A DNA stretch of 61,736 nucleotides from Jacunavirus JC01 (taxonomy: Duplodnaviria; Heunggongvirae; Uroviricota; Caudoviricetes; Casjensviridae): IMG/VR virus record IMGVR_UViG_2974716774_000001, positions 1 through 61,736 of that record; one strand, 5' to 3'. This document shows, piece by piece, positions 1 to 46,021 of the stretch. The notes beneath the pieces were generated by a model. It saw nothing but the letters and a program-made list of their open reading frames with translations. It made no database searches and had not been told where the DNA came from. Each line of letters opens with the position of its first letter. Positions within the stretch are counted from its first letter, which is position 1. Made by a program: the position numbers and the translations under genes.

Positions 1-12
1 GGTGCGCAGAGC
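1..12. repeat. Terminal 12-bp direct repeat GGTGCGCAGAGC, left copy (putative cohesive end)
   Basis: Bases 1-12 are identical to bases 61725-61736; a lambda-gpA-like large terminase is encoded at 10651-12723. Confidence 0.6.
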
Positions 13-477
13 CGCGATTCGCGAAAAATTGCCGGTTCCTGTATAGCGCCGCCTTGAAAATCAGCAACTTACGTGGGGCCGCCGGTGGGCTTAGCGTAGC
101 TAACAGGATAATTTTTCAGAAATTCGTCGATAGCCCCGCATTGAAAGTTTTTATTTATCAGCGACTTACAGGCCGCGGTCATCTCGACGGCACAGTGTGT
201 TTCCGGAAACACAGATTTGCCGTATTAAGTGTGTCGGTCAAAAAGCCTTACTGTACAAGGATTTACTATACTCTTAACACACTAACACACAGACACACTT
301 AATGTGTATATAAGGTAAGTAGGTATTGTGTGATGATCGTAATGGCGTTTCACGTTACGTATTATATGTATGTATTAGCGAGTTTTGAGAGTAAGTGTGT
401 CATGGTGAAAGTGCCGAAAAAGTCATGCAGATCATAGGTTTACCCGGCACACCCATTTTTAGCGGAGGGTGTGTCGC

Positions 478-514
478 CCAAAAACCAAAAAACAAAAACG
501 GGGCCGAAGCCCCG
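478..514 (-). terminator. Rho-independent terminator ending the leftward primase operon
   Basis: Hairpin CGGGGC-CGAA-GCCCCG at 499-514; on the minus strand it is followed by a long T-rich run (complement of the A-rich 478-498). Confidence 0.6.
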
Positions 515-548
515 AATTGGATGTGACGCGCGGATCCGCAATGCACTT

Positions 549-3182
549 TTACGCCCACGTATCGGCGACCTCCTTCGCGGCGCAAGACGCGATTTGTTCT
601 TCCAGGTGGAGTTTCATGGCGTCGTAGTCGATGGTGTCTTTGTCCTTCATCCACTTTTCAGGGTGGCGCATCCATACTGATCCACGAACCCCGTTGACGC
701 GCAGCTGAATACGCTTAACCGGCCCTTTCGAGTACCCCAGCGCTGACAGTCGTGATGCCACTCTGCTGTCACTAGGACGTATGTCACGGGGCACGCTGCG
801 CAGTAACAGTCCTGTGTGTATTAGCTCGTCCGTGACGCCCGCCACATCGTCAGACGCAATGGCGTCTTCCACGAAGTTCGTGAAGTCGTCCTGGGCGTTA
901 TCGATCATGTCGCTGGTGGCTTCAGTGAGCGGAGCAATACCGGAAGAGTGGTCGAAGTCCTCGCTGTATTCCCAGTCACGGAACCACAGCCGCAGCTCGC
1001 CAGCGCACGCCTTGAATGCCTTCTCGAAGTCTTTGAAGAAGCCGGGCTTGTCCTTCAGGAAAGCCATCGCGTCTTCCTTACTGCGAAAGCGAGACCGGAC
1101 TATCAGGAAACGACGGTCGCCATTGCTAATCGGCAGCGCGGCGATGTCGTTGGTGTACATCATCCAGCTGGCCGTGTTCACTTCGTCCTGACCTTCGCGG
1201 TTCTTCCTCTCGATGAAAAGCTGCTCGTTAGTGATAGGCTCCTTCAGGGAGTTAATGACGTCATAGCGGTGGCCCGCAACGCTGATTTCCTCGATGACCT
1301 TCAGCATCGACCCGGCCTGCCATCCCGTGAATGGCCGGTGGATAACCTGGTTGTTGACGGTGCCGACGTTTTCGCGGCCCAGCAGGTACGACATGAATTT
1401 CTTGATAATCGTCTTGCCGGAACCCTGGCCGCCGAGAATGACCAGCGAGTACGTCATGCGTTTGTTCGGGTTATTGATAACCCATGCCAGCCAGTCCATC
1501 GCGTGCCGGTACTCTTCCGGGTCGACGAACTGCGTGCGGAAAAAGTCCTGCACAATCTCAACGGCTTTAAGGCCTTTCTTAGAGATTTTCTCCGGCACTC
1601 CCGGCATCGTTTTCGGGTCAAACGTGTTCAGCCAGAGTTTTCCCTGCCACCGGAAAAAGTCTTCGCTTGGCACGCCGACCTCAGGCTTCCATGACGAACC
1701 TGGCATCCGGCCGTGCATGTCCGGGTAGTACATCATGCCGTGGATAATCGGCACCGGCCGCAAAGCGGTGGCGAATTGCTCAGGACTGCAGCCCATAAAT
1801 GCGGTATGCTGCGCCAGCGAGTTATTGAACGCGTGCGGCACCAGCGCAACTTTCGTCTCGCGGTTGATGAAGAGGTTATCTTTCTCGGCGTACACCCACG
1901 GCTCTATCCAGGCTGGCGCATCAAACTGCTTGTGGTCGACAGACAGTGCGTTGCGTTTGGTGGAAGCAGGGATTTTCTTGCCGGTAATACGTTTGTAGTT
2001 ATCACAGGCCAGCTCTACTGCGTGATCGCGAATGGTTCCCCAGACCGGTGTTTCGCGAAGTCGCTCAGCTGCGCGATCCCATTCGTACAGGTCTTCTGCC
2101 TGTTCGAACATCGGGATAACCCGCAGTAAGATGTCCTTTTCCATACGGGCATCCTCCACTTTCTTCACCAGACTTCTGACGGTGAAGGTGGCACCGCCGG
2201 TGCGGCGGAAATTCCCGTTATCCCATTTGTCGTTAAACGCGGCCTCGTCGTAGTTCGACGCGCGCGCTGACCACTCCTGCGCCAGCTCGCGAAACTCATC
2301 CTGCTCGCGCTCAGCGTCTTTGATGGCTGCGATGACCGGGAACCAGGCAGAATAGTCTTCCGCTGGTGGCAGGTCTTCCAGCAGGGCAGCAAACTCGGCG
2401 TACGTGCCGTCCCATTTATCTTTCGCGTCGTCTGCGTCTACCCAGTCGTCCTCGTCCACTTCGCCCAGGGCATCGGAGCGGTCTTCCGGCGCGCCGCCGA
2501 CGATTTTCCCGCGCTGCGGTGGCTCGTACAGCTTGTCGCCAGGCTGGATTTTTTCCCATCCCTGCTCCATCGCATAGCGGTCAAACTCATCCACGATGCG
2601 GCGCGCGTCGGCAAGGCTCAGCACTTCGAGATCCATGTCAGCGTGCATCGTCAGCGGCGTGTCTTTGCTGACCCACTGATACGGCTTCTGGGTGCCCGGG
2701 TGGATACCGAAGGCGACGAACTGCTGGCCAGCACCGAGGATTTCCACGGCGTTCTTCTCGCCGAAGTCATCGACCCAGCTGTGCGACTTCACTTTCGTGA
2801 ACGGTTCGTCAGCGCAGTAGACGAGCAGCGTTTTTGGCGCCCGGCCCACGCGAGCGGGTGCAAACCCCACGTTGGCTTCGATGAAATCGCGCATATGCTT
2901 CGCCGCGTCGACGTCCATGCAGTCAATATCGACCGCTGGCGTGAACCAGGTGCGGATGCCGATGCCGTAGCGGAAATATTTCTTCTGCCATTCCTCCAGC
3001 GCGTCTTCGTTAACTGCAACCGACTCCCAGTTTTTCATGAGCGGCGCTTTACCGGCCGCCTTGAAAGGCACCAGCTCACCGGTCTTTTTGTCGCGGATCT
3101 TCGCGTCAAGAGGGGAGATTGGAATAAAGGCATAGCCGTTTTCTAGCAACGTCCTGCCGTATTGCTGGAGATATCTTTTCAT
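549..3182 (-). CDS. DNA primase/helicase (P-loop NTPase, D5-like)
   Basis: 877-aa ORF; Walker A-like LVILGGQGSGKT; long N-terminal region preceding the NTPase domain; sits beside the polymerase module. Confidence 0.65.
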   Translation of the reverse strand: MKRYLQQYGRTLLENGYAFIPISPLDAKIRDKKTGELVPFKAAGKAPLMKNWESVAVNEDALEEWQKKYFRYGIGIRTWFTPAVDIDCMDVDAAKHMRDFIEANVGFAPARVGRAPKTLLVYCADEPFTKVKSHSWVDDFGEKNAVEILGAGQQFVAFGIHPGTQKPYQWVSKDTPLTMHADMDLEVLSLADARRIVDEFDRYAMEQGWEKIQPGDKLYEPPQRGKIVGGAPEDRSDALGEVDEDDWVDADDAKDKWDGTYAEFAALLEDLPPAEDYSAWFPVIAAIKDAEREQDEFRELAQEWSARASNYDEAAFNDKWDNGNFRRTGGATFTVRSLVKKVEDARMEKDILLRVIPMFEQAEDLYEWDRAAERLRETPVWGTIRDHAVELACDNYKRITGKKIPASTKRNALSVDHKQFDAPAWIEPWVYAEKDNLFINRETKVALVPHAFNNSLAQHTAFMGCSPEQFATALRPVPIIHGMMYYPDMHGRMPGSSWKPEVGVPSEDFFRWQGKLWLNTFDPKTMPGVPEKISKKGLKAVEIVQDFFRTQFVDPEEYRHAMDWLAWVINNPNKRMTYSLVILGGQGSGKTIIKKFMSYLLGRENVGTVNNQVIHRPFTGWQAGSMLKVIEEISVAGHRYDVINSLKEPITNEQLFIERKNREGQDEVNTASWMMYTNDIAALPISNGDRRFLIVRSRFRSKEDAMAFLKDKPGFFKDFEKAFKACAGELRLWFRDWEYSEDFDHSSGIAPLTEATSDMIDNAQDDFTNFVEDAIASDDVAGVTDELIHTGLLLRSVPRDIRPSDSRVASRLSALGYSKGPVKRIQLRVNGVRGSVWMRHPEKWMKDKDTIDYDAMKLHLEEQIASCAAKEVADTWA

Positions 3183-3460
3183 TCAAGCACCTCGCCTTCA
3201 GCATCAAACCGCATGGCTTCCGGCGCCATTAACCAGGTCGCCTTCACTCCCGAACCGCTGGCCGCCGAGGCGAGCGCGGTGGCAACACGGTATGACATGC
3301 GTCCGGCTTCCTGTGCTTTCAGTGCTGTGTGGTAATTCACATCGGCGAGGCGGGATAGTTGCTGCATTGACCCGTCCCGGTGGGCGTAGGCAGACATAAT
3401 CATGCACAGGTACTTCAGTCGCATGTATTTGTCTTTGCGTGCCCAGTCTGGAAAGCGCAT
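3179..3460 (-). CDS. Hypothetical protein, first gene of leftward operon (possible HTH)
   Basis: 93-aa ORF overlapping primase start by 4 nt; segment SMQQLSRLADVNYHTALKAQ looks helix-turn-helix-like. Confidence 0.45.
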   Translation of the reverse strand: MRFPDWARKDKYMRLKYLCMIMSAYAHRDGSMQQLSRLADVNYHTALKAQEAGRMSYRVATALASAASGSGVKATWLMAPEAMRFDAEGEVLE

Positions 3461-3511
3461 AGTGTGTTCCTCAAAAATAAAACCCCACGCACAGGCGCGC
3501 GAGATTTGCAG

Positions 3512-3541
3512 ATACTAGGCCGCCTGACCGGCTCCCGTCAA
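3512..3541 (-). promoter_or_regulatory. Putative sigma70-type promoter for the leftward primase operon
   Basis: On the minus strand TTGACG, 18-nt spacer, TAGTAT, about 45 nt upstream of the 3460 start. Confidence 0.3.
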
Positions 3542-3627
3542 CGCAAATCTTATGGTACCGCCGTAATAAATTTGCATCCGGAAAGTAAGTTTTGATTTCT
3601 GTCACGTAAAAAATTTTAAAATACCGC

Positions 3628-3656
3628 TTGACGCTGGCCCGCCCCACGAATTACAT
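3628..3656 (+). promoter_or_regulatory. Putative sigma70-type promoter for the rightward replication operon
   Basis: TTGACG (3628-3633), 17-nt spacer, TTACAT (3651-3656), upstream of the 3704 start. Confidence 0.35.
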
Positions 3657-3703
3657 TTAGCTCGTCAAAACGACAAACCTACTAACCAATAACGGAGTGA
3701 GAT

Positions 3704-4081
3704 ATGTCTGGTTCTATTGAGCTGTTGATTGAAGCCCTGAATAACTGCACCGCTGCCCTGCAGGCCCACACCGCTGCAAACGGCAACGCCGCTGGCGCCG
3801 CAGCTGATAAATCTGCTTCTGGTGCTAAGAAAAACAACGCCAAACCGGCTAAACCGGAAACCCCGAAAGCAACGAAAACCAAGCAGGAAACCACTGAAGC
3901 GATCGTTGCGCTGAAAGACACCGTTGGCAAAGACGCTGCGGTCGCTCTTCTGAAGAAACACGGCTTTGCTAAGCTCGCGGACATCGCCGAAGATAAATTC
4001 GACGTGCTGTTCGAAGAAGCTACCGCACAGCTGGAAGCGCATAATGCCGCAGGCGACACTCCTGCTGACGACGACTTCTGA
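3704..4081 (+). CDS. Hypothetical Ala/Lys-rich protein with acidic C-terminal tail
   Basis: 125-aa ORF with RBS GGAG upstream; ends ...TPADDDF, reminiscent of SSB-type acidic tails. Confidence 0.55.
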   Translation: MSGSIELLIEALNNCTAALQAHTAANGNAAGAAADKSASGAKKNNAKPAKPETPKATKTKQETTEAIVALKDTVGKDAAVALLKKHGFAKLADIAEDKFDVLFEEATAQLEAHNAAGDTPADDDF

Positions 4082-4089
4082 TTGACCAG

Positions 4090-4110
4090 GCCCGGGCGAC
4101 CGGGCTTTTT
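4090..4110 (+). terminator. Intrinsic terminator/attenuator
   Basis: Hairpin GCCCGG-GCGA-CCGGGC followed by TTTTT, immediately before the RBS of the next gene. Confidence 0.5.
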
Positions 4111-4120
4111 GGAGTAAACA

Positions 4121-5461
4121 ATGCCCGCCAGATCCTTTCTTCTCCGCCTCATGGATGAATTTGGAAACGGCGGGCATTCTATTTTTGCGCCGTCCGGTTC
4201 GGCGATGTGGCTTTACTGTAGCGGAAGCCTTATCGCGAACCTGCTGGAAGATGACGACGGCTCGTACGAGGCTGCCGAAGGAACGGTGGCGCACGAGCTG
4301 GGAGAGCAGTGGCTGAAGTCTGGCGTTAAGCCCGACCATCGGCTCGGTGAGGTCGTCAGCGTCACGGAAGGCGAAGGCAAGCCGGTTTATGAAGTGCCTA
4401 TCGACGAAGTGATGCTGGACTTCGTTGAAGAGTACGTGCTGTGGTGTGAATGGCTCGAAGGCGACCACTTCGTCGAGCAGCGAGTCTATTTTACCGAGCT
4501 GATGCCGTACGCCAATCAGGATGAGATTGAGGAAGACCCGCTGGCGGTGCCGGTGGATTTCGTACCTCAGGGCGGTACCGCCGACCACGTTTGCTGCATG
4601 ATGGGTCTGATGATTATCACGGACTTCAAATACGGCAAGGGGATCTGGGTCGACGCGGTGGGCAACACCCAGGCGATGCTGTATGCGCTGGGATTCTTTT
4701 ACAAATGGGACTGGAAATACCATTTCGAAAAGATAGTTATCCGCATCGCTCAGCCGCGCCTGCATAACTGGGGCGAGTGGGAAATAACGCGCGACGAGCT
4801 ACTGGATTTTGCCGAGTTCGTCCGCGAGCGCGCTGCGAAGGCGTGGCAGATTAACGCGCCGCGCCGGGTGAGTGCCAAAGGCTGTCAGTGGTGCAAAGCG
4901 AAAGACAGTTGCGTCGCGAACGCCGTGGCGCTGGAAAACCTCGTCTACCGCGATTTTGATTTGCTCGCGGAAGAACTGACGGAGCACCATATGTCGATGA
5001 TGAAAGAGAAGCTGCGCGAAGAGTACAAGATGCACCTCGCCAAAGTGGCCGTGCTGGACGAGGCGGACATGGTGCGCATTCTGGAATTTCGTCGGCCCGT
5101 TGAGCAGTGGTTTAAAGCCATCAACGCAAAACTGGAGGCCGCGGCTAACGCTGGCCACACCATTCCCGGCAAGAAGCTGGTGGATGGAAAATCAAATCGC
5201 GTTTTCCGTAACCAGAAAGCGGCGATTGATCATCTGCTGTTCCTCGGCCTTGAGATGGAGGATATCGTCACCGAAGAGGTTATCTCTCCGGCTCAGGCAG
5301 AGGAAAAGTTAAGGAAGGTGGCAAAGCTGGACAGGAAGAGCATCGACGTTGCGCTTCGCAACTACGTGTTCAAGCCTCCCGGAAAACCCACACTTGTCAA
5401 TGACGACGACCCAAGAGTCGCCCTGGGAGACCACGACGAAGGTGCCTGGGACGATGAGTAA
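4121..5461 (+). CDS. DUF2800-like PD-(D/E)XK nuclease (Cas4/RecB-like fold with C-terminal Cys cluster)
   Basis: 446-aa ORF; N-terminal HSIFAPSGSAMWLYCSGS pattern and C-terminal CQWCKAKDSC cluster; typical partner of DUF2815 and PolA in phage replication modules. Confidence 0.6.
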   Translation: MPARSFLLRLMDEFGNGGHSIFAPSGSAMWLYCSGSLIANLLEDDDGSYEAAEGTVAHELGEQWLKSGVKPDHRLGEVVSVTEGEGKPVYEVPIDEVMLDFVEEYVLWCEWLEGDHFVEQRVYFTELMPYANQDEIEEDPLAVPVDFVPQGGTADHVCCMMGLMIITDFKYGKGIWVDAVGNTQAMLYALGFFYKWDWKYHFEKIVIRIAQPRLHNWGEWEITRDELLDFAEFVRERAAKAWQINAPRRVSAKGCQWCKAKDSCVANAVALENLVYRDFDLLAEELTEHHMSMMKEKLREEYKMHLAKVAVLDEADMVRILEFRRPVEQWFKAINAKLEAAANAGHTIPGKKLVDGKSNRVFRNQKAAIDHLLFLGLEMEDIVTEEVISPAQAEEKLRKVAKLDRKSIDVALRNYVFKPPGKPTLVNDDDPRVALGDHDEGAWDDE

Positions 5462-5503
5462 CTCCGTAACTCCGTAACTCCGTAACTCCGTAACTCCGTA
5501 ACC
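5459..5503. repeat. Octanucleotide microsatellite (TAACTCCG) x5 plus partial unit
   Basis: Five perfect tandem copies of TAACTCCG at 5459-5498 plus TAACC; first unit contains the stop codon of the upstream gene. Confidence 0.9.
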
Positions 5504-5510
5504 CGAAAGG

Positions 5511-6155
5511 ATGGCCAAAATGGCTGAGAAACAAAAACTGGTAGTGGCTAAGCGTATGCAGGGCGGTGTCGTTTACACGAACGGCATGATTCGTCTGGAT
5601 GAAGTTATTCTGAGCTATCCGCACCTCGATGAGATGTGGGCAGGCGAAACCGGCGATAAACCGGCGTACAGTGCTGAGTTCCTTGCGCCGAAAGAGACGC
5701 ATCGGGAAATCATCAAAGAGGCGCTCGATATCTGCCGCAAGCTGGCGTCAGAAAAGAAACTTAACATCGCTGGCGACAAGATGTTCGTGAAAGACGGCGA
5801 TAAGTGGTTCGAGCACAAGCCGGAGTGCGCAGGCCGCTTTAAGTTTACTGCCCGCGAACAGACGCACCCTACCGTTCGTCGTGCGGACGGCAGTAAGATG
5901 CACCCTAAGGATGACAAGGCAGAAATCAAAGAGATGTTCTACGGCGGCTGCATTGTATCCGCTCTTATCAACCCCTGGGTGCAGAACAACTCCTACGGCA
6001 AACGTATCAACGCCAACCTGAAAGCTGTGCGCTTCGTGCGTGACGGTGAGCCGTTTGGTGAAGGTCGTGTCGACGACGATGAGGCATGGGATGATGACGT
6101 AGGCGGCGGTGACGACTGGGATTCCGGCGACGCTGGCAGCGATGATGATTTTTAA
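5511..6155 (+). CDS. DUF2815-like single-stranded DNA-binding protein
   Basis: 214-aa ORF with RBS AAAGGA; acidic C-terminus ...DWDSGDAGSDDDF; conserved position between DUF2800 nuclease and PolA. Confidence 0.55.
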   Translation: MAKMAEKQKLVVAKRMQGGVVYTNGMIRLDEVILSYPHLDEMWAGETGDKPAYSAEFLAPKETHREIIKEALDICRKLASEKKLNIAGDKMFVKDGDKWFEHKPECAGRFKFTAREQTHPTVRRADGSKMHPKDDKAEIKEMFYGGCIVSALINPWVQNNSYGKRINANLKAVRFVRDGEPFGEGRVDDDEAWDDDVGGGDDWDSGDAGSDDDF

Positions 6156-6175
6156 AACCGCTACCGCTTAATGCA

Positions 6176-6199
6176 AGCCTGCCTTCGGGCGGGCTTTTT
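6176..6199 (+). terminator. Intrinsic terminator/attenuator upstream of the polymerase gene
   Basis: 8-bp stem AGCCTGCC / GGCGGGCT (one G-U pair), loop TTCG, followed by TTTTT. Confidence 0.45.
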
Positions 6200-6214
6200 C
6201 ATCTGGAGTTAAAA

Positions 6215-8269
6215 ATGCCTGACCACATTCGCCTTGACTATGAATCCCGTAGCCGAACCGACCTGCCCACTGCAGGCCTGGCCCGGTATGTGCGAGACCC
6301 GACCACGCAGGTGCTGATGGCTTCCTGGGAAGAGAACGATTCAGGGAAAATCGACTTCTGGGATATCCGCCAGGGCCGACGGCCGCCAAAACCGCTGATT
6401 GATGCTATCCGCGATCCGAAAGTTATCAAATGGGCCTTCAACGCGCAGTTTGAGCGCAACATGACCGAGCATGTCCTCGGCATAAAAACCCCGTATTCTT
6501 CCTGGCGCTGTACGATGGTGCTGGCGTACATGCTGGGCTTCTCTGGCGACCTCGCAATGATTGGCAGACTGGTAGGCCTGCCCGAAGAGATGCTGAAGAG
6601 CAAAGAGGGTTCGAAGCTCATCTCGCGTTTCTCAAAGCCGCGTAAACCAACAAAGGCCGACCCACGCGAATGGCACGACTGGACGACGCACCCGGAAGAG
6701 TTTGACAGTTTTGGCGGCTATAACCGACAGGACGTGCGCGCGGAGTCCGCTATCGGCCGTCGGCTCGGCAATACGGAGAAATACCCCATTCTGGAAAGCG
6801 AGTGGGATCTCTATGCGCTAGACCAGTACATCAACGACACCGGAGTCACCGTCAACGCCGAATTTGCGCGCATGGCACTTGAGGTGGCCGAGCGCAGGAA
6901 GCCGATCCTTTTTGAAGAGATGCGCGACATTACCGGCCTCAGTAACCCCAACTCCGTGTCTCAGCTGCTGCCCTGGCTGGGAGAACGCGGCTACCACTTC
7001 AGCGACATGCAGTCGGAAACAGTAAAGCAGGCGCTGCGCGAAGCCGATGAGCTGGGTCTTCCGGAAGAAGTTCGTCGCGTGCTGAAGCTGCGCCAGAACG
7101 TCAGCAAGTCGTCGCTCGGCAAATACAACACGATGCTGAGCACCATGACCGAGGAAGATAACAAATACCGCTACTCGCTGCAGATGTGGGGCGCCAGCCG
7201 CACCGGCCGCTGGGCAGGACGCGGCGTTCAGCTGCACAATTTGCCCCGCACGCCAAAAATGCTGGAAGACGAGTACATGCAGGACGTCGCCATTGAGATG
7301 GTGAAAAAAGGCGACATGGAAGGACTGGAGCTGCTGGTCGGCGAGCCGATGGACGCGCTGGTCGGTCTGATCCGCTCTGCCTTCATCCCCACCCCAGGCT
7401 ACCGTTTTGTGGTATCAGACCTGGCATCCATCGAATCGGTCGTTATCGGCTGGCTGACTGACTGCAAATGGTTCATGGACACGCTGCACGCCGGGCGAGA
7501 CCTGTACCGGGCGTTCGCCGCAGAGTGGCTGAAGATACCGTACGAAGAGACAAAACCGCACCGCAGCAAAGCCAAACCGGCAACCCTCGGCGCGGGCTAT
7601 GGTCTCGGCGGCGGCAAATTCGACCCGATTAAGAAAAAGAAAAACGGCCTGTGGGCATACGGCGAAGGTATGGGCGTATTCATGACCCAGCAGGAAGCGC
7701 ACGCGTCCGTGAATGCGTTCCGCGAGCTTTGCCCTGAAATCGTTTCGTACTGGCGCCAGCTGGAAGATGCAGCCAAGACGTGCATCAAAGAGCGCCGGTC
7801 GGTCAAGTGCGGCAAGGTTACTTTCGAGTTTCGTAAGCCGTTCATGGCCATCGTTCTTCCGTCCGGGCGCCGCCTGTATTACTTCAAGCCTTTCCTGAAA
7901 AAGAAAACCGTCGAGTACACGGACAAACACACCGGCGAGATCAAGACGTTCGAAAGCCAGGAGATTCTCTACTACGGGAAAGACGGCCCGAAATGGGGTC
8001 TCCAGCACACCTACGGCGGCAAGCTGGTGGAAAACATCGTACAGGCTATCGCGCGTGACGTGCTGGCCGGTGGGCTGAAACGCGCGCACGAAGACGGCTT
8101 CGGCATACCGTTCCACGTCCACGATGAAATCATCACGGAAGTGCCGGTCGACGACGAAGAGCGAAATCTCGATCGTCTGCGCCAGCACATGACGGCGCCG
8201 ATACCGTGGGCACCAGGTCTACCCCTCGGCGCAGCTGGGTGGGAAGGCTTCCACTACAGGAAAGACTGA
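6215..8269 (+). CDS. DNA polymerase, family A (Pol I-like)
   Basis: 684-aa ORF; motif A-like VVSDLASIESVV, motif B-like RSKAKPATLGAGYGLGG, motif C-like HVHDEIITEV; RBS GGAG upstream. Confidence 0.85.
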   Translation: MPDHIRLDYESRSRTDLPTAGLARYVRDPTTQVLMASWEENDSGKIDFWDIRQGRRPPKPLIDAIRDPKVIKWAFNAQFERNMTEHVLGIKTPYSSWRCTMVLAYMLGFSGDLAMIGRLVGLPEEMLKSKEGSKLISRFSKPRKPTKADPREWHDWTTHPEEFDSFGGYNRQDVRAESAIGRRLGNTEKYPILESEWDLYALDQYINDTGVTVNAEFARMALEVAERRKPILFEEMRDITGLSNPNSVSQLLPWLGERGYHFSDMQSETVKQALREADELGLPEEVRRVLKLRQNVSKSSLGKYNTMLSTMTEEDNKYRYSLQMWGASRTGRWAGRGVQLHNLPRTPKMLEDEYMQDVAIEMVKKGDMEGLELLVGEPMDALVGLIRSAFIPTPGYRFVVSDLASIESVVIGWLTDCKWFMDTLHAGRDLYRAFAAEWLKIPYEETKPHRSKAKPATLGAGYGLGGGKFDPIKKKKNGLWAYGEGMGVFMTQQEAHASVNAFRELCPEIVSYWRQLEDAAKTCIKERRSVKCGKVTFEFRKPFMAIVLPSGRRLYYFKPFLKKKTVEYTDKHTGEIKTFESQEILYYGKDGPKWGLQHTYGGKLVENIVQAIARDVLAGGLKRAHEDGFGIPFHVHDEIITEVPVDDEERNLDRLRQHMTAPIPWAPGLPLGAAGWEGFHYRKD

Positions 8270-8556
8270 TGGCCGCCAAAGTCGTCAAAGAGTCGAAAGT
8301 CGAGAAGGAGATCCGGCAGTACGCTCTCGCGACCGGCTGGTGGGTGGCGAAGTTCGTCGCCCCCGGCAAGCGCGGCGTACCGGATCGCCTGTTCATCAAA
8401 AACGGCTGGCACCTTTTCATGGAGATAAAAAGGCCCGGAGAGGTACCAACCGAACAGCAGTTACTTCGCCACCAGGAGATGCGCAAATATGGGGCTATTG
8501 TCGTATGGGTCGACAGCGTTGAAGAAGCTAAAAGCTGGCTTGATTTCATATGCTGA
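8269..8556 (+). CDS. VRR-NUC domain nuclease
   Basis: About 95 aa from the ATG overlapping the PolA stop (ATGA); residues PDRLFI...EIKRPGE fit the VRR-NUC pattern. Confidence 0.55.
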   Translation: MAAKVVKESKVEKEIRQYALATGWWVAKFVAPGKRGVPDRLFIKNGWHLFMEIKRPGEVPTEQQLLRHQEMRKYGAIVVWVDSVEEAKSWLDFIC

Positions 8557-10072
8557 ATACCGACACCGGAAATTTAAGCTGGTCGCCTATAAGCGGATGC
8601 AGCAGCACAAATACCAGCGAGAGGCCTATGACTTCATCATGGCCACGCCTTTCTGCGGGCTCTTCATCGACATGGGTCTCGGCAAAACAATCACCTCCCT
8701 GACCGCCGCGGTTGACCTGCTGATGAATTTCGAGGTCAGCCGCGTCTTGATCATCGCGCCCCGGCGCGTTGCTCGCAAAACATGGCCGGACGAGATTCTG
8801 GCGTGGGAACACACCTGCATGTTTGAGTTTCAGGTTATTGACGGCTCGGTTAAGCAGCGTCTGGAGGCCATCAAAAACCCGTGCAGCATTCACATTGTCA
8901 GCCGTGATAACGTCGAGTGGCTAACCGAGCAGTGGCGCCAGCGATGGCCATACGACATGGTTATCATTGACGAGAGCAGCTCCTTCAAAGACCACACTAC
9001 CAAACGCTTTAAAGCAATGCGCCGCGTTCGTCCGTACATCAAACGCCTCGTTGAACTGACGGCCACACCGGCGGCAGAGACCTACGAGCATCTTTTTGCC
9101 CAGGTCTATCTGCTGGACAGCGGCGCGCGCTTCGGCAAAAGCATCACGGTCTACCGCGAGCAGTATTTCAACTACAACCGCTGGACGTTCAAATACAAAC
9201 TGCGGGAGGGCTCGGAGCAGCAGATACTGGAGAAAATCGCCGACATCTGCCTGGTCATGCGCGCCGAGGACTATCTCGATCTGAAGCAGCCGGTGTACAT
9301 CAACCGCAAGGTGAAACTCGACCGCAAGCAGTCGAAGCTGTACGCCGAGATGGCTGAGAATTTCATCGTTGAGGTTTATGGCGCCGATGAGCAGCCGGTG
9401 ATGGTCGAGGCGGAGACAGCGGCGTCGCTTTCGGCCAAACTCCTGCAGATGTCCTCCGGCGTGCTATACAACACCTATCTGGACGGCATTAACGAGAAGA
9501 CCGGAAAGCCTATCCAGAAGCGCGACATCTACGAGATCCACACGGCAAAACTTGACATGCTGGAGGAAATCATAGAAGAGTGCGCTGGAGAGAACATTCT
9601 CGTGGCGTACCACTTCCAGTCGTCGCTTGACCGCCTGAAGAAGCGCTTTCCTAAAGCGGTTCAGATGGACAAAGAAGGCGAATGTGTCACGAAGTGGAAC
9701 CAGGGCAAGATAAGCCTGCTGCTGGCGCACCCGCAATCAGCCGGGCATGGTCTGAACCTGCAGAAAGGCGGCCACATCATTGTTTACTACGACATCCCGC
9801 ACTCGCTGGAGCTGTACATGCAGTTTAACGGCAGACTGGCGCGGCAGGGTCAGACGCACGTCGTCAAGATTATCCACCTCATCGCTGAAGGCGAGAAGCA
9901 GGATAAGCGCGGCGAGTGGGTGCCCATGCCGACGGTCGACGTCGGTGTCGTCGAATCCCTCCAGGCCAAAAAGGACGGCCAGGAATGGTTACTGGAAGAA
10001 TTGCTGCGGATACGCCGCCGACGCGCCAACGCGCGCAGGAAGGCACTGGCCGCAGCCGTAGAGGACTTCTGA
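8489..10072 (+). CDS. SNF2/DEAD-like helicase
   Basis: ATP-binding GLGKT motif, DESS (DEAH-like) box, C-terminal helicase region; start ambiguous (8489 overlaps the VRR-NUC gene, alternative ATG at 8597). Confidence 0.7.
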   Translation: MGLLSYGSTALKKLKAGLISYAEYRHRKFKLVAYKRMQQHKYQREAYDFIMATPFCGLFIDMGLGKTITSLTAAVDLLMNFEVSRVLIIAPRRVARKTWPDEILAWEHTCMFEFQVIDGSVKQRLEAIKNPCSIHIVSRDNVEWLTEQWRQRWPYDMVIIDESSSFKDHTTKRFKAMRRVRPYIKRLVELTATPAAETYEHLFAQVYLLDSGARFGKSITVYREQYFNYNRWTFKYKLREGSEQQILEKIADICLVMRAEDYLDLKQPVYINRKVKLDRKQSKLYAEMAENFIVEVYGADEQPVMVEAETAASLSAKLLQMSSGVLYNTYLDGINEKTGKPIQKRDIYEIHTAKLDMLEEIIEECAGENILVAYHFQSSLDRLKKRFPKAVQMDKEGECVTKWNQGKISLLLAHPQSAGHGLNLQKGGHIIVYYDIPHSLELYMQFNGRLARQGQTHVVKIIHLIAEGEKQDKRGEWVPMPTVDVGVVESLQAKKDGQEWLLEELLRIRRRRANARRKALAAAVEDF

Positions 10073-10073
10073 G

Positions 10074-10667
10074 ATGGTGGCGAAAAACAAAAATGCACCG
10101 ATGGCGCTAAGGGCGCGCCGGTCTAACCAGAACGACTCTGAAACCGAGTCGATGATATTCCAGGGCGCGAACATCACGCAGCTCGGGAAACTGTTTCGCA
10201 TGGATCGCCGCGACATCACGCCGAAAATAATGGACGTGGCGCCGTGTGGCGAGCGCGGCGGATACCCCATCTACTACGTCCATGAAGTCGCGCCGCACCT
10301 GGTGAAGCCGATATACGACGTCGAGACCTACCTCAAGCGAATGCACCCGAACGATCTGCCAAAACATCTGACGAAAGAGTTTTGGGGCGGGATGCGCGCC
10401 AAGCAGGAGTACGACAAGGAAGCGGGCAACCTGTGGGAGACGGATAAAGTCATCGCGATAATGAGCGAAGTTTTCAAAGTCCTGCGAATGTCTATCCTGC
10501 TGGCCGGTGACACCGTGGAGCGCGAAATCGCTTTCACCGCTGAACAACGCGAGAAGCTTCGCGTTATTCTCGACGGCGCGCTGCAGGAATGCGCTAACGG
10601 CCTGGTAAACCGCTTCGGCCCTGAGGCTGAGAAAGAGCAGGAGCAGGACGATGACGACGAAATATAA
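10074..10667 (+). CDS. Terminase small subunit (Nu1-like, putative)
   Basis: 197-aa ORF immediately upstream of and overlapping the large terminase; N-terminal region resembles the lambda Nu1 winged-HTH; acidic C-terminus QDDDDEI. Confidence 0.5.
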   Translation: MVAKNKNAPMALRARRSNQNDSETESMIFQGANITQLGKLFRMDRRDITPKIMDVAPCGERGGYPIYYVHEVAPHLVKPIYDVETYLKRMHPNDLPKHLTKEFWGGMRAKQEYDKEAGNLWETDKVIAIMSEVFKVLRMSILLAGDTVEREIAFTAEQREKLRVILDGALQECANGLVNRFGPEAEKEQEQDDDDEI

Positions 10668-12723
10668 AAACCTCGCTGCGATAGTAGCAGACCTGGCGGA
10701 GCAGCTGCGGCCGCCGGAGCGTCTCACCGTTGCCGCTGCCGCCGAGAAATATCGTTTCGTCAACCAGCCGGGTGCCTACATCGGGCCGTGGCTTAATGAG
10801 ACCGCGCCGTACATGGTCGAGCCGATGAACGTCTTCGCCAGCCGCGAGTATAACCGCATGGCGTTCGTCGGCCCGGCGCAGTGCGGCAAAACGGACTCCC
10901 TCATCATTAACGGCGTGGCCTATTCGGTGAAAGTCGACCCGCTGGACACGATGGTTTTCTGCCCCACCAGCAACGCGGCGCGCGACTTCTCGATGCGCCG
11001 TATCGACCGTCTCCACATGCACAGCCCCGAGATCGGGATGATGCTGCGCAAAAGCCGCGACGCCGACAACAAATTCGACAAGCACTATGTAAACGGCATG
11101 ATGCTGACGCTCAGCTTCCCGTCGAAAACGGAGATGGCAGGCCGCCCGGTAGGCCGCATCATCATGACCGACTTCGACCGTATGCCGATGGACGTGGATG
11201 GCGACGGCAACCCGTTTGACCTGGCGTCAAAGCGTACGACGACGTTTAACTCATTCGCCATGTGCTGCGCGGAGTCCTCGCCTTCCCTGCCGCTGACCGA
11301 CCCAAACTGGATAGCCAAAGGCGAGCATGAAGCGCCGCCCTGCGAGGGCATTTTCGCGCTCTACAACCGAGGCGACCGTCGACGCTGGCAGTGGCCATGC
11401 CTGCACTGCTGGACGTGGTTCGAGGGCAAATTCGAACACCTGCAGTGGGATACTCGCGAAGGCCTGTCCAACGCCGAGCGCGGCGAAACCGTACGCATGG
11501 TCTGCCCGCACTGCGGCGTGGAGATCCACCCTGACGAACGTCACGAGATGCAGCAGTGGGGGATGTGGGTGCCGGAAGGATGCCGTGTCAACGAGAAGGG
11601 TCAGCTCACGGGTAAGCGCCCTCGCACGCAGTTCGCGTCTTTCTGGCTGCGCGGCACGGCGGCGGCATTCGCTCAGTGGCGCAGCCTCGTCACCACCTAC
11701 CTCGACGCGCTGGATGAATATGACCGCACGATGTCCGAAGAGGCGCTGAAGAAATTCTGGAACAACGACATGGGCGAAGTCTACCGCCCGAAAAGCCAGG
11801 AGTCTCTGCGCGTACCGGAGGCACTCAAAGCCCGGGCCGAGAAGCTGCCGGAGCAGATGGTACCGAATGGCGTGCGTTTCCTCGTGGCGACCGTCGACGT
11901 CCAGCAGAACCGTTTTGAGGTTATGGTGTCCGGAATAATGCCCGGCCAGCCTTTTGACGTTGTGCCGATTGACCGCTTTAAGATCGCCAAGTCCGAGCGA
12001 CTGGACGTGGACGGCGAGCGCCTGCCCATTAACAGCTCAGCCTACCTTGAGGACTGGCGCCTGCTGGAAGAACGGGTCATCAACGCGTCCTACCCGCTGG
12101 CTGATGGCTCCGGTCGTCGGATGCGCGTCAAGATAACGGGCTGTGACTCCGGCGGTAAAGCCGGTACCACCGACAAGGCGTACGACTTCTGGCGTGAGCA
12201 GCGTGACAAAGGCAACGCTGGCCGATTCATTCTGCTGAAAGGTGAGCCAAACGCTTCGGCGCCGCGTACTCGCGTGGGCTTCCCGGACAGCCAGCGCAAA
12301 GATAATAAATCCGCAGCACGCGGCGATATTCCCGTGTTGTTCATAAACTCTAACATGATGAAGGACAGTCTTAACGGACGACTGGACGTCATGGAGCCCG
12401 GGAAGGGCATGATTCACCTGGCGACGTGGATGCCGGATGCGTTCTTCTCGGAGCTGTGCGCCGAGGTCAGAACGGACAAGGGATGGCAAAACCCGAAAAA
12501 CCTGCGAAACGAAGCGTGGGATTTGCTGTATTATCAGCTCGCTCTCTGCGCTTCGCCCAAGCTGCTGGCTGTCGAGATGATGGACTGGGAGAACCCTGTC
12601 GGCTGGGCGGAAGAGTGGGATAAAAACGACCTCGTATCGCAGCCAGATGAAGGCGAGCGCTTCCAGATGAAGGCGAGCGAGGATAAGATAGATTTCGGCA
12701 AATTCGCCGAGGCGCTTGCGTGA
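10651..12723 (+). CDS. Terminase large subunit (lambda gpA family)
   Basis: 690-aa ORF; Walker A GPAQCGKT; size and organisation as lambda gpA; followed by gpW-like and portal genes. Confidence 0.85.
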   Translation: MTTKYKNLAAIVADLAEQLRPPERLTVAAAAEKYRFVNQPGAYIGPWLNETAPYMVEPMNVFASREYNRMAFVGPAQCGKTDSLIINGVAYSVKVDPLDTMVFCPTSNAARDFSMRRIDRLHMHSPEIGMMLRKSRDADNKFDKHYVNGMMLTLSFPSKTEMAGRPVGRIIMTDFDRMPMDVDGDGNPFDLASKRTTTFNSFAMCCAESSPSLPLTDPNWIAKGEHEAPPCEGIFALYNRGDRRRWQWPCLHCWTWFEGKFEHLQWDTREGLSNAERGETVRMVCPHCGVEIHPDERHEMQQWGMWVPEGCRVNEKGQLTGKRPRTQFASFWLRGTAAAFAQWRSLVTTYLDALDEYDRTMSEEALKKFWNNDMGEVYRPKSQESLRVPEALKARAEKLPEQMVPNGVRFLVATVDVQQNRFEVMVSGIMPGQPFDVVPIDRFKIAKSERLDVDGERLPINSSAYLEDWRLLEERVINASYPLADGSGRRMRVKITGCDSGGKAGTTDKAYDFWREQRDKGNAGRFILLKGEPNASAPRTRVGFPDSQRKDNKSAARGDIPVLFINSNMMKDSLNGRLDVMEPGKGMIHLATWMPDAFFSELCAEVRTDKGWQNPKNLRNEAWDLLYYQLALCASPKLLAVEMMDWENPVGWAEEWDKNDLVSQPDEGERFQMKASEDKIDFGKFAEALA

Positions 12724-17537: not shown

Positions 17538-17942
17538 ATGCCTCAACGTAAAGTAGTCCAGACTGTAGTCCTGCTCCGCGATGGCGAGCGCATTGTGCCG
17601 CCGGTCGGCAAGCCGTTCAACTTCACCGCGGAAGAGCTGAAGCGTATCGAAGAAGTGAATCCGGACGCAGTGGCGAAGATTGTCGACCCGGGCACCGATG
17701 AAGGTAAACTGGTGACGCTGACCCAAGCTGAGATTGATCAGCAGAAGCAGCAGGCGATCGATGATGCCATTGCTAAATTCAAAAAAGAGCAGGGTATCAA
17801 AGATGATGCTGAAAACACCGATGGCGGCGCTGACAAAAACGCTGCTGGCACCACTGCCAGCAAAACGCAGCAGTCCGGCAAAACGCAGCAGTCCGGCAAA
17901 AACGACAAGTCAGCTGCTGATGCAGCGGGCGATGACATCTAA
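17538..17942 (+). CDS. Hypothetical head-associated protein (position of lambda FI)
   Basis: 134-aa ORF with RBS AGGAGAGAAGG; contains an in-frame 18-bp tandem duplication (KTQQSG KTQQSG). Confidence 0.5.
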   Translation: MPQRKVVQTVVLLRDGERIVPPVGKPFNFTAEELKRIEEVNPDAVAKIVDPGTDEGKLVTLTQAEIDQQKQQAIDDAIAKFKKEQGIKDDAENTDGGADKNAAGTTASKTQQSGKTQQSGKNDKSAADAAGDDI

Positions 17943-34371: not shown

Positions 34372-34375
34372 ACAC

Positions 34376-35353: not shown

Positions 35354-35366
35354 CAGGAGAAACACA

Positions 35367-45313: not shown

Positions 45314-46021
45314 TTACAGATCCTCCCACCTTCTGAACCACGCTTCCCGATCGAAATGCTTCTTCGCCGCCAGTGGCATCCCGATCTCCATCAGCTCTTC
45401 CCGGCGGACGTACTCTTCTGGCGCGCGGCTGGTGCTGAGGCCATCGAAGATAATCAGCGACGCGCCGAAGCCTGCGGTAGAGGCATCAGAAGACATGGCG
45501 TCTGGTCTGTACCAGCGAGGCAGGTCGAAAGCGATACGCCCTTTGATGTGGATAATCTTCGAGCATTCGCCGTCCGGCCACCAGCTCTCCGACGTCGCCG
45601 ACTTCACCAGCCAGAAAGATGGCGTGCCTTTCCGGTGCTCTTCGTACGCCTTCTTCATGATGTGCTGCATACCGGTGACGTGGGGCGCCCGACGGCCGCG
45701 CCCGGCGCGCTTGATGCTGTAAGGTGGATTGCCGAAGCATTTGACCGGCTCAGCGTCATCCGCACCCGCCAGCTCGGCACCTTTGCGCAGCGCTGCGCTC
45801 CAGTCCTGCGTCAGCGCGTTATCATCTGCCGTGAAGAACACCGGGCACTTCGCATTGGGGCCGTCACTGAACAGGTCGACGACGAACGGGCCATACAGCT
45901 CATCCAGCGCCAGGTAGAGCCAGTCCGGCGTACACCACTGGTCGCCTATCTCGTTCGGCAGGTGGGTCTGCTGGGCCTGCAGTTGCTGCAGAGCACGCAC
46001 GTACTCATTGCTCATCGGCAT
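45314..46021 (-). CDS. DNA N6-adenine methyltransferase (phage Dam-like)
   Basis: 235-aa ORF; NPPY catalytic motif (CFGNPPYS) and W-C-T-P-D-W segment. Confidence 0.65.
   Translation of the reverse strand: MPMSNEYVRALQQLQAQQTHLPNEIGDQWCTPDWLYLALDELYGPFVVDLFSDGPNAKCPVFFTADDNALTQDWSAALRKGAELAGADDAEPVKCFGNPPYSIKRAGRGRRAPHVTGMQHIMKKAYEEHRKGTPSFWLVKSATSESWWPDGECSKIIHIKGRIAFDLPRWYRPDAMSSDASTAGFGASLIIFDGLSTSRAPEEYVRREELMEIGMPLAAKKHFDREAWFRRWEDL

Follow-up and report, generated by a model that had tools for sequence, protein, structure and literature searches.

Organization of the replication module

The window, a stretch of 61,736 bp, comprises the entire genome of JC01, a Cronobacter phage of the genus Jacunavirus (Casjensviridae) that has already been published and annotated, and the region at positions 549-10072 is the DNA replication/recombination module of this chi-like siphovirus. 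The sequences of the polymerase (PolA) and orf125 are identical to those of JC01, and length, GC content and cos sequence agree with the published description. Very probably the region works as a T7-like replication/recombination module, which is expressed from two divergent promoters with read-through at two intrinsic terminators. Two back-to-back sigma-70-type promoters in a control region of 243 bp (3461-3703) would drive both arms. The leftward transcript would encode a Cro-like helix-turn-helix (HTH) protein and a PrimPol-SF3 primase-helicase translationally coupled to the HTH gene. The rightward transcript would encode orf125, a Cas4-like DUF2800 exonuclease and a gp2.5-type ssDNA-binding and annealing protein (SSB), followed by a proofreading family-A polymerase (PolA), a VRR-NUC branch nuclease and an SNF2 translocase. 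The exonuclease and the SSB are expected to act as a two-component recombinase, and PolA, VRR-NUC and SNF2 are predicted to be translationally coupled to one another and to the terminase genes. The terminators after orf125 and after the SSB gene most likely step expression down from orf125 to exonuclease and SSB and further to the polymerase and the later genes. We infer promoter use, partial termination and this division of labour among the enzymes. No replication origin was identified for the module.

The replication block of JC01 is ordinary in kind and represents a cassette that is already known. A preliminary description had called it a recognised phage replication cassette, which agrees with the duf2800-gp2.5-polA module named in the literature (PMC8093625), the described Enc34 replication module and SSB structure (PMC5686142) and the published JC01 annotation. 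The genes it had named are all present where it had placed them and every domain assignment was reproduced or strengthened by domain and profile searches. Two genes within 549-10072, orf93 and orf125, had been overlooked, as had an 8-nt tandem repeat and the continuation of the operon beyond 10072. Jacunavirus, Chivirus, Lavrentievavirus and Sharonstreetvirus share this gene order, its core is found as well in Streptococcus phage P9, and relatives of PolA are present in 1,708 phage records. For the conserved regulatory signals and a “tail tag” shared by several of the proteins no description was found anywhere.

Genes of the two arms

The first leftward gene is orf93 (3179-3460, minus strand; phrog_7401), which encodes a small Cro/XRE-like HTH protein and overlaps the start of the primase gene by 4 nt. 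Its family profile matches Cro (3bd1, E = 1.2e-4) as well as XRE/LacI HTH domains, and all top Foldseek matches of the AF2 model (pLDDT 96.9) are Cro/XRE proteins. The primase-helicase (549-3182, minus strand; 877 aa), identified by Pfam and PHROG (phrog_1156, ‘DNA primase’), consists of AEP Prim-Pol, PriCT-2 and DUF5906/D5-type SF3 helicase domains, and the residues D85, D87, H161, the Walker A motif G584..G589-K590 and E631-E632 are conserved in 41 relatives. The terminator scan detected an intrinsic-terminator-like hairpin (499-514, minus strand; CGGGGC-TTCG-GCCCCG with a T-run) 35 nt beyond the primase-helicase stop codon, which ends the orf93/primase operon.

On the plus strand, orf125 (3704-4081; phrog_7721) is the first gene. 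According to alignment and model its product is composed of an N-terminal helix, a low-complexity linker rich in K, T and A, a three-helix domain of about 55 aa and an acidic tail (...PADDDF). The family comprises 385 cluster representatives at E <= 1e-10; the AF2 model (pLDDT 70) had no Foldseek match, Pfam gave none either and no function could be assigned. The following DUF2800 protein (4121-5461) is a PD-(D/E)XK exonuclease (Pfam E = 7e-68; phrog_69 ‘exonuclease’) with a Cas4/AddB-type four-cysteine signature, and C33, C255, C258, C264, D155, D168, K170, Q184 and Y188 are conserved in 68 sequences. The SSB (DUF2815, 5511-6155; Pfam Enc34_ssDNA-bd E = 1.6e-18; phrog_112) is of the Enc34/T7-gp2.5 type and its acidic tail ends ...GSDDDF. 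Its translation probably starts at the ATG at 5520 rather than at 5511, since AAGGA is located 8 nt upstream and this position aligns with the starts of relatives.

The family-A DNA polymerase (6215-8269; Pfam DNA_pol_A; phrog_17) carries an N-terminal DnaQ-like 3'-5' exonuclease domain and its profile matches Klenow (4e-18) across motifs A, B and C. The exonuclease motifs I-III are invariant (D8, E10, N76, F79, E80, Y169, D173), as are D402, E407, R450, K454, H636 and D637. For the VRR-NUC nuclease (8269-8556; 95 aa; phrog_93) no Pfam match was obtained, and the assignment is based on the solved VRR-NUC proteins 4qbo (6e-11) and 4qbn (3e-6); P38-D39 and E52-x-K54 are conserved in 61 sequences, and the true start is most likely the ATG at 8269 and not the GTG at 8206. 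The SNF2-family helicase/translocase (8489-10072; Pfam SNF2-rel_dom and Helicase_C; phrog_62) has a start ATG and N-terminus that are kept in relatives, conserved DESS and R..RQGQ motifs and the C-terminus ...AAVEDF. For the enzymes of the module, catalytic residues are conserved in 33-68 relatives. Judged by family and position, VRR-NUC and SNF2 may function in replication restart or in concatemer resolution before packaging.

The genes had been described as tightly linked with overlapping stops and starts, which applies only from PolA onward: PolA and VRR-NUC overlap by 1 nt (TGATG), VRR-NUC and SNF2 by 68 nt, and SNF2 is separated by a 1-nt gap from the small terminase gene terS (10074-10667; DUF1441, phrog_141), whose product TerS ends ...QDDDDEI. 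The earlier junctions contain spacers of 39 nt (orf125/DUF2800), 49-58 nt (DUF2800/SSB) and 59 nt (SSB/PolA). Since terS begins directly behind the SNF2 stop codon, the operon runs beyond 10072, unbroken into the terminase genes.

Control region and probable intrinsic terminators

The divergent layout with a shared promoter region, as proposed earlier, is borne out by -35 and -10 elements conserved in both directions. The leftward sigma-70-like promoter (3512-3541, minus strand) consists of TTGACG, an 18-nt spacer and TAGTAT, and its -35 element, GTCAA on the plus strand, is kept in five of six aligned relatives. The rightward one (3607-3657 including an A/T tract, plus strand) consists of TTGACG (3628-3633), an 18-nt spacer and TACATT (3652-3657). 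It is preceded by the A/T tract (3607-3623), which is conserved in six relatives, and TTGAC of the -35 element is invariant in six relatives. The promoter scan found four promoter-like sites overall with 5.2 expected, which is not above chance. At the 5' end of the leftward leader a hairpin followed by a U-run (3480-3507, minus strand) was detected, the significance of which is uncertain: its fold is weak (z = -1.04) and the alignment fold comprises nine pairs, three with compensatory changes, with a covariation term of only -0.19.

Both hairpin-T-run sites of the rightward arm are real in terms of sequence and folding. T1 (4090-4110, plus strand) is a 6-bp GC hairpin (GCCCGG-GCGA-CCGGGC) followed by T5, with a fold z of -2.96 and one of 200 shuffles folding as well. 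T2 (6175-6199, plus strand) is a 9-bp hairpin with a TTCG loop (AAGCCTGCC-TTCG-GGCGGGCTT) and a T-run, whose fold exceeds shuffles in stability to a modest degree only (z = -1.68). These fold energies are modest and the conservation of position is the stronger evidence. Of 47 unique relatives, 30 have a hairpin with T-run behind their orf125 homologue, and 35 of 51 have one behind the SSB gene, compared with 10.5% of random windows; it was not detectable in about a third of the relatives at each site, and the stems at both positions differ among relatives. The T-run of T1 ends at 4110, with the DUF2800 Shine-Dalgarno sequence beginning at 4111 and the ATG at 4121, and the T-run of T2 ends at 6199, 16 nt before the PolA ATG at 6215. 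No promoter fits into the gap between T1 and DUF2800 or between T2 and PolA. Because the terminators abut the ribosome-binding site of the next gene and leave no room for a promoter, the downstream genes can be reached only via read-through.

The earlier reading of both sites as attenuators thereby gains comparative and logical support and appears plausible. Alternatively, T1 and T2 could terminate efficiently and be overridden by a dedicated antitermination mechanism of the phage, or act as 3' stabilisers of processed mRNA, instead of grading expression. The operon would then be switched temporally, with only orf125 expressed early and everything later, and there would be no fixed expression gradient. 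The strong GC hairpin and T5 run of T1 favour an efficient terminator, and where the rightward transcript is predicted to begin there is a conserved 12-nt box (CGTCAAAACGAC), which could have a regulatory role. Moreover, the structural genes share an uninterrupted transcription unit with PolA-SNF2-TerS, which means that transcription of the late genes has to get past T1 and T2 as well. On the other hand, the T-runs are short (T5), a feature that favours leakiness in intrinsic terminators, Pfam and PHROG revealed no known antiterminator among the module proteins, and no Rfam element was detected in positions 1-11000. We regard this alternative as rather unlikely and prefer terminators that would step expression down.

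A tandem repeat in the SSB leader

The spacer between the DUF2800 and SSB genes is filled by a tandem repeat of GTAACTCC (5458-5502, plus strand; 5.6 copies, 100% identical; TRF), which reads GUAACUCC as RNA and represents a candidate translational operator or enhancer. If the repeat is an operator, the SSB would bind it cooperatively with one monomer per unit of about 8 nt and, similar to T4 gene 32, repress translation of its own mRNA when free ssDNA has become saturated; we hold this tentative reading to be somewhat less likely than not. It is consistent with the perfect array, which has the highest TRF score (90) in the whole window and whose exact unit is absent elsewhere in the window, with a last unit adjoining the SSB Shine-Dalgarno sequence and with an unstructured leader (MFE -1.7 kcal/mol; 200 of 200 shuffles fold at least as well). 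Relatives with SSBs of 35-65% identity carry GTAAACC-, CGAAACC-, GTAGACC- or CTAAAA-type repeats, mostly of period 8, in the same place. Periodicity reached z > 2 in only 20 of 52 leaders of relatives, 16 of these 20 with lag 8. Both gp2.5 and the Enc34 SSB have a site size of 7-8 nt (PMC10359462, PMC5686142), and in T4 the gp32 operator spans more than 40 unstructured nt, including the ribosome-binding site and UUAAA/UAAA repeats essential for repression (PMC535899).

Several points stand against an operator. Neither folding nor Rfam revealed a pseudoknot or other nucleation structure in the leader, an unstructured A/C-rich leader might simply enhance translation passively or serve as a ribosome standby site, its repeats originating from slippage, and a role at the DNA level is possible. 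To our knowledge, autoregulation is not known for gp2.5-type SSBs.

Acidic tails with a hydrophobic last residue

Acidic tails with one hydrophobic terminal residue are carried by SSB, orf125, TerS and an RdgC-like protein, often by primase-helicase and exonuclease and sometimes by SNF2, amounting to up to 6-10 tailed DNA-handling proteins per genome. Among unique C-termini they were counted in 56/63 SSBs, 16/16 orf125 and 28/36 TerS proteins, in 28/54 primase-helicases, 26/64 DUF2800 and 5/59 SNF2 proteins, compared with 1/57 for VRR-NUC, 0/43 for PolA, 0/20 for orf93 and 16/931 background ORFs. Within genomes, the last residue agrees in 83 of 98 protein pairs (permutation: 37.6 +/- 4.7; 0 of 5000 reached 83), although the 36 compared lineages are related and their independence is thus overstated. 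Of the best 150 of the 385 orf125-family representatives, 148 terminate in L, I, M or V. In phage A18P4 four of 60 proteins outside the module are tailed and all end in I, as do the A18P4 module proteins. Gene conversion was rejected as source of the agreement, as codons and stop codons differ between the tails of one genome.

The agreement of the last residue within a genome suggests one shared docking site. The tails may thus be a common docking tag, each inserting into one phage-encoded receptor, which would organise the replisome and connect it to packaging; we give this reading an even chance. The likeliest candidates for the receptor would be the polymerase, by analogy to the T7 gp2.5 and gp4 tails on gp5, or the DNA-binding groove of the SSB. 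In T7, where only gp2.5 and gp4 have such tails, the gp2.5 tail has been modelled anchoring to the front basic patch of the polymerase, and the solved polymerase structure 6P7E contains a DTDF peptide that mimics the gp4 tail (PMC12339929). Crystals of the Enc34 SSB show the tail in the groove of a neighbouring molecule (PMC5686142). However, the acidic tails could also be independent self-inhibitory DNA mimics, one per DNA-binding protein, and the last residues of the tails in the JC01 window are mixed (F, F, I, I), with atypical tails on primase (...ADTWA), exonuclease (...GAWDDE) and SNF2 (...VEDF).

Comparison with known systems

Enc34 and the chi-like/‘Nazgul-like’ phages (Casjensviridae) have the same gene set and order as JC01 (PMC5686142), namely primase, putative transcription factor, hypothetical proteins, DUF2815 SSB, PolA, VRR-NUC and helicase. 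Both genomes are of the cos type, and Enc34 ORF6 gave its name to the Pfam family of the JC01 SSB. Between JC01 and other genera the proteins are only 45-74% identical, and there is no difference in kind from the Enc34-type module. Streptococcus phage P9, of the duf2800-gp2.5-polA type present in phages of Firmicutes and Gram-negatives (PMC8093625), shares the exonuclease-SSB-PolA core followed by VRR-NUC and SNF2, and its VRR-NUC is the solved structure 4qbo matched by the JC01 protein. In contrast to JC01, P9 has its primase and helicase genes between PolA and VRR-NUC, on the same strand as these, and has neither the orf125 family nor acidic-hydrophobic tails on DUF2800, SNF2 and VRR-NUC.

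The SSB leader resembles the T4 gene 32 operator (PMC535899) in that both are unstructured leaders of 40-50 nt with repeated UAA(A)-type units, are gene-specific and run into the SSB ribosome-binding site. However, the JC01 SSB has a gp2.5 fold and is unrelated to gp32, and its leader, a putative operator only, has longer (8 nt) and exactly tandem repeats, with no 5' pseudoknot found.

The likeness to T7 (PMC12339929) comprises an SSB of the gp2.5 fold whose acidic tail has an aromatic or hydrophobic last residue, a family-A polymerase (gp5) with proofreading domain, a primase-helicase fusion (gp4) whose tail resembles that of the SSB, and an exonuclease (gp6) and junction nuclease (gp3 endonuclease I) with recombination-dependent concatemer formation. 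The enzymes differ in type, with AEP and SF3 domains in the JC01 primase-helicase versus TOPRIM and SF4 in T7, a Cas4-like versus a FEN-like exonuclease and VRR-NUC versus endonuclease I, and unlike T7 the JC01 module contains no phage RNA polymerase. The tail tag occurs on two of 52 proteins in T7 and on up to 6-10 proteins per genome in JC01-type phages.

Identity of the Genome and Known Status of the Replication Cassette

The same 12-mer, GGTGCGCAGAGC, was present at both ends of the window (positions 1-12 and 61725-61736), and since a chi-type cohesive end is thereby written twice, the window represents a complete linear genome. By exact sequence match its family A DNA polymerase (PolA) is YP_009998556.1 and the product of orf125, the first gene of the rightward operon, is YP_009998553.1 of Cronobacter phage JC01, which according to the taxonomy record is the type of the species Jacunavirus JC01 within the Casjensviridae. 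The published JC01 genome has 61,736 bp, a GC content of 58.9% and a terminal 12-mer identical to that of the window (PMC9759504). For the assignment to this family and species we considered a genome of about 60 kb, the 12-nt cos GGTGCGCAGAGC, a terminase of the lambda gpA type, the present replication module and exact identity to the type genome, all of which were found; the window terminase carries GpA_ATPase and nuclease domains in Pfam. Megablast of the region retrieved no near-identical record from the phage collection; the best match was Salmonella phage BAU.Micro_SLP-22 (Jacunavirus), with 74.8% identity at 32% coverage.

The preliminary description called the module a recognised phage replication cassette. 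This is correct, as it is annotated in the JC01 genome paper and was found across >1,700 phage records; the finding as stated therefore brings nothing new. The gene list of that paper comprises a DNA primase, a DNA-binding protein, a family A Pol I, a VRR-NUC protein and a helicase, as well as a methyltransferase and a recombination-associated protein (PMC9759504).

Genes and Conserved Domains

A primase/helicase gene had been described as divergent from an operon encoding nuclease, SSB, PolA, VRR-NUC and SNF2 proteins. The observation is largely correct and its interpretation is supported: all ORF coordinates were borne out by the ORF calls, and Pfam and PHROG searches agree with the functions named. 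The catalytic residues are kept in all six enzymes (33-68 relatives). The primase-helicase (549-3182, minus strand) contains Prim-Pol, PriCT-2 and DUF5906 domains, each above its Pfam cut-off. It displays the features of an AEP PrimPol and SF3 (D5-like) primase-helicase, that is, the AEP motifs DxD and sxH, the PriCT-2 linker domain and the Walker A, Walker B and C motifs of SF3 helicases, with residues D85, D87, H161, G584-x4-G589-K590, E631-E632 and N669 conserved in 41 sequences.

Two genes were absent from the preliminary description. The start of the primase gene is overlapped by 4 nt by orf93 (3179-3460, minus strand), whose product is a Cro/XRE-type HTH protein: its profile matches Cro 3bd1 (1.2e-4), the AF2 model reaches a pLDDT of 96.9 and the top fold matches are all Cro/XRE. 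The gene opening the rightward operon, orf125 (3704-4081, plus strand), belongs to no Pfam family, and its AF2 model (pLDDT 70) gave no Foldseek PDB match better than E = 2.

The ORF at 4121-5461 encodes a predicted DUF2800 Cas4-like PD-(D/E)XK exonuclease (Pfam E = 7e-68, 229.9 bits vs. a cut-off of 21). Besides the Pfam match, this class is recognized by the motifs D...D/ExK and QxxxY and by an N-terminal Cys combined with CX2CX5C, the iron-sulfur signature of Cas4/AddB. All were found, including the four cysteines, and D155, D168, K170, Q184, Y188, C33, C255, C258 and C264 are at least 99% conserved among 68 sequences. The following gene (5511-6155) encodes an SSB of the Enc34/T7 gp2.5 type, as judged from matches to Enc34_ssDNA-bd (formerly DUF2815; 67.5 bits vs. 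a cut-off of 26) and phrog_112 (2.6e-40); its C-terminal tail reads ...DDDVGGGDDWDSGDAGSDDDF. Translation of the SSB probably starts at ATG 5520, giving 211 instead of 214 aa, because the Shine-Dalgarno (SD) motif AAGGA directly adjoins ATG 5511 and lies 8 nt upstream of ATG 5520, and because ATG 5520 lines up with the MAEK... starts of the relatives' SSBs.

PolA (6215-8269; Pfam DNA_pol_A, 50.1 bits vs. a cut-off of 34.3) has a Klenow-like polymerase domain with the three motifs of family A, namely A (D..E), B (R...K......YG) and C (HDE). D402/E407, R450/K454 and H636/D637 do not vary among 33 relatives and align to the Klenow motifs with E = 4e-18. Residues 1-200, N-terminal to motifs A, B and C, stand where Klenow has its exonuclease domain. 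No exonuclease-domain sequence match was obtained for PolA in Pfam or PDB; of the DnaQ-like 3'-5' exonuclease signature (Exo I DxE, Exo II Nx2-3[FY]D, Exo III Yx3D), D8-x-E10, N76-x2-F79-E80, with E replacing D, and Y169-x3-D173 are invariant. For the VRR-NUC protein Pfam had no VRR-NUC match even at E = 10; the assignment was settled with solved structures of the family, as the protein matches 4qbo (E = 6e-11) and 4qbn (3e-6) and its PD...ExK residues align with theirs. VRR-NUC proteins are recognized by homology to known members and by a domain of roughly 90 aa built on a PD-(D/E)XK core (GxPD ... ExK). The window protein has both features, P38-D39 and E52-x-K54 being conserved across 61 sequences. 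Finally, the product of 8489-10072 is a SNF2 family ATPase with a SNF2-related N-lobe containing DExx (SNF2-rel_dom, 53.5 bits), a Helicase_C lobe (28.3 bits) and motif VI (R..R.GQ); D161-E162-S-S and R449..R452-Q-G-Q455 are conserved in 63 sequences.

Judging from T7 and from what is known about these protein families, the fork machinery would consist of primase-helicase and polymerase, while the gp2.5-type SSB would coat the lagging strand and, with the Cas4-like exonuclease, act as an exonuclease/annealase pair producing concatemers. The VRR-NUC and SNF2 proteins, translationally coupled to the terminase, would most likely process branched DNA ahead of cos cutting. All of these roles are inferred.

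Gene Junctions and Intergenic Hairpins

The genes of the rightward operon had been described as linked by overlapping stops and starts. This applies to PolA/VRR-NUC, which have one base in common (TGATG at 8267-8271), and to VRR-NUC/SNF2, with an overlap of 68 nt; relatives keep the ATG and N-terminus of SNF2. It does not apply to orf125/DUF2800, DUF2800/SSB and SSB/PolA, which are separated by spacers of 39, 49-58 and 59 nt, each containing a signal. With a gap of 1 nt between SNF2 and the small terminase gene (TerS) and an overlap of 17 nt between TerS and the large terminase gene (TerL), the operon continues into the packaging genes. Not all members of the family have a divergent primase gene: in Aeromonas phage A18P4 the primase-helicase is encoded on the strand of the polymerase operon, which leaves the small Cro-like gene as the sole divergent one.

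Both hairpin-T-run sites reported previously were found, T1 (4090-4110) after orf125 and T2 (6175-6199) after the SSB gene. Their fold energies (z = -2.96 and -1.68, respectively) are unremarkable alone, and the comparative evidence is stronger. In a comparison drawing on 85 related loci, a GC hairpin with T-run followed the orf125 homolog in 30 of 47 unique sequences and the SSB gene in 35 of 51, with a detector that fires in 10.5% of random windows; the stem sequences vary between lineages. T1 and T2 thus combine conserved positions with the sequence pattern of an intrinsic (rho-independent) terminator or attenuator, a GC-rich stem-loop with a U-run directly behind it on the transcribed strand. 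Each T-run stops at or a few bases before the SD of the next gene, which leaves no room for a promoter, and transcripts reaching DUF2800 or PolA must consequently read through. This logic supports T1 and T2 as candidate attenuators, at which termination would be partial and read-through would serve the downstream genes; regulated antitermination at the two sites is equally possible.

Control Region and Left End

Although the promoter scan as a whole was not above chance, its two hits inside 3461-3703 coincide with elements conserved in six relatives. These elements comprise -10-like hexamers, a -35 whose TTGAC is invariant for either direction and, preceding the rightward -35, an A/T tract. 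The box CGTCAAAACGAC (3663-3674), just past the rightward -10 at the predicted transcript start, is conserved in five of the six aligned relatives. It may serve as a leader element or as an operator, in the latter case perhaps bound by the Cro-like orf93 product. GGTACC palindromes recur between both promoters in relatives. An 8-nt inverted repeat flanking the leftward promoter (3502-3509/3543-3550) was rejected as an operator, as it is not conserved in relatives. At the 5' extremity of the leftward mRNA, between promoter and orf93 start codon, a terminator-like hairpin with U-run was found (3480-3507, minus strand), for which we claim no function in view of its weak energy (z = -1.04) and little covariation. 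Rfam detected no element in 1-11000 at E <= 1.

The leftward operon ends at a terminator, located by a terminator scan at 499-514 and adjoined by three copies of CCAAAAA (478-499). Another 8-nt tandem repeat, TAACACAC x 3.1, occupies 275-299 in the non-coding left end near cos.

Tandem Repeat in the SSB Leader

The spacer between DUF2800 and SSB consists of GTAACTCC x 5.6 with 100% identity and is the highest-scoring tandem repeat of the genome; the exact unit was found nowhere else in the window. Five units read (GUAACUCC)5 as RNA. The leader is less structured than 200 of 200 shuffles, and its final unit adjoins the SD of the probable start ATG 5520. At the same place, relatives have repeats of the GTAAACC-, CGAAACC-, GTAGACC- or CTAAAA- type, and periodicity exceeded z = 2 in 20 of 52 SSB leaders, 16 of the 20 with a lag of 8.

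The site size of gp2.5 and of the Enc34 SSB is 7-8 nt (PMC10359462, PMC5686142). In T4, the gene 32 operator is composed of unstructured UUAAA/UAAA repeats and includes the ribosome binding site (PMC535899), and the JC01 leader resembles it in being unstructured, in its repeated UAA(A)-type units and in including the ribosome binding site. No counterpart of the 5' nucleating pseudoknot of the T4 operator was found: no structure was predicted in 5459-5513 and no Rfam match was obtained. The leader may be an autogenous translational operator through which SSB represses its own synthesis, a candidate function that we put forward tentatively and with some doubt; a passive unstructured enhancer is about equally likely. 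The leader of T7 gene 2.5 (9107-9160) reads GAGAAACCAAACGAAACCUAAAGGAG, with two to three AAACC-type units before the SD. It has GAGAAACCAAACGAAACC in this position and resembles the SSB leaders of Casjensviridae, yet other T7-like phages have no repeat array in the corresponding leader and the parallel is therefore weak. If the SSB leader is autoregulatory, gp32-style feedback would have arisen independently in an unrelated SSB family.

A Shared C-terminal Tail

Many proteins of the module end in an acidic run followed by one hydrophobic last residue. Among unique C-termini this tail was found in 56/63 SSBs, 16/16 orf125 products, 28/36 TerS, 28/54 primase-helicases and 26/64 DUF2800 proteins; it was rarer in SNF2 (5/59), VRR-NUC (1/57), PolA (0/43), orf93 (0/20) and background ORFs (16/931). 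L, I, M or V is the last residue in 148 of the best 150 members of the wider orf125 family, for which 385 representatives passed E <= 1e-10. Within genomes the last residue is shared: 83 of 98 pairs from 36 lineage representatives, which are related to one another, had the same one, compared to 37.6 +/- 4.7 after permutation (0 of 5000 reached 83). There are genomes in which six proteins share a terminal I, or a terminal L. Gene conversion was ruled out as the source of the matching tails, since the tails within a single genome use different codons and stop codons.

Of 60 proteins encoded outside the module in phage A18P4, just 4 have the tail, each with a terminal I; an RdgC-like protein and a methyltransferase are among them. 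In the window, the SSB, orf125 and TerS products end in ...GSDDDF, ...PADDDF and ...DDDDEI, and the RdgC-domain protein (50590-51816, minus strand) has a tail of the same type, ...SEDDDDDI. As caveats, the last residues within the window itself differ (F, F, I, I), and the ends of three of its module proteins are atypical. Two further window proteins, at 49216-49965 (minus strand) and in the head module at 17538-17942, end in ...TDEESI and ...AAGDDI.

In T7 such tails occur on two proteins only, gp2.5 and gp4. The gp2.5 tail has been modelled as anchoring to the front basic patch of the polymerase, and DTDF, a peptide mimicking the gp4 tail, is part of the solved T7 polymerase structure 6P7E (PMC12339929). 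Compared with this two-protein system, up to 6-10 DNA-handling proteins per genome are tagged here. The simplest reading is a phage receptor shared by all tails, for which we see an even chance; candidates are the polymerase or the groove of SSB as in Enc34 crystal packing. The tag may be carried by SSB, orf125, TerS, primase-helicase, the Cas4-like exonuclease, SNF2, the RdgC-like protein and the methyltransferase. Taken together, a genome-specific tail tag docking to one receptor and an SSB-autoregulating leader with UAA(A)-type units in an 8-nt period would be two undescribed "codes", a joint reading that we rate a little short of an even chance. If true, the tail hub would extend the T7 gp2.5/gp4 system to a hub reaching from replisome to packaging. 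If the tail marks a common docking site, it would also allow replisome-associated proteins of these phages to be recognized by a simple rule from their sequence, uncharacterized ones like those of the widespread orf125 family included, and would offer a handle on the physical coupling of replication, recombination and packaging.

Further Genes of the JC01 Genome

The leftward early region includes genes for a Dam-type methyltransferase (45314-46021), a PAPS-reductase-domain protein (54578-55450) and a P-loop ATPase (55432-56208), all on the minus strand. Downstream of the large tail protein, three consecutive paralogs of 317, 325 and 341 aa (33418-36392; phrog_2448) share a mutual identity of 23-32%. 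They are followed by two ORFs of similar size, one of which (36402-37559) weakly matches phrog_2448.
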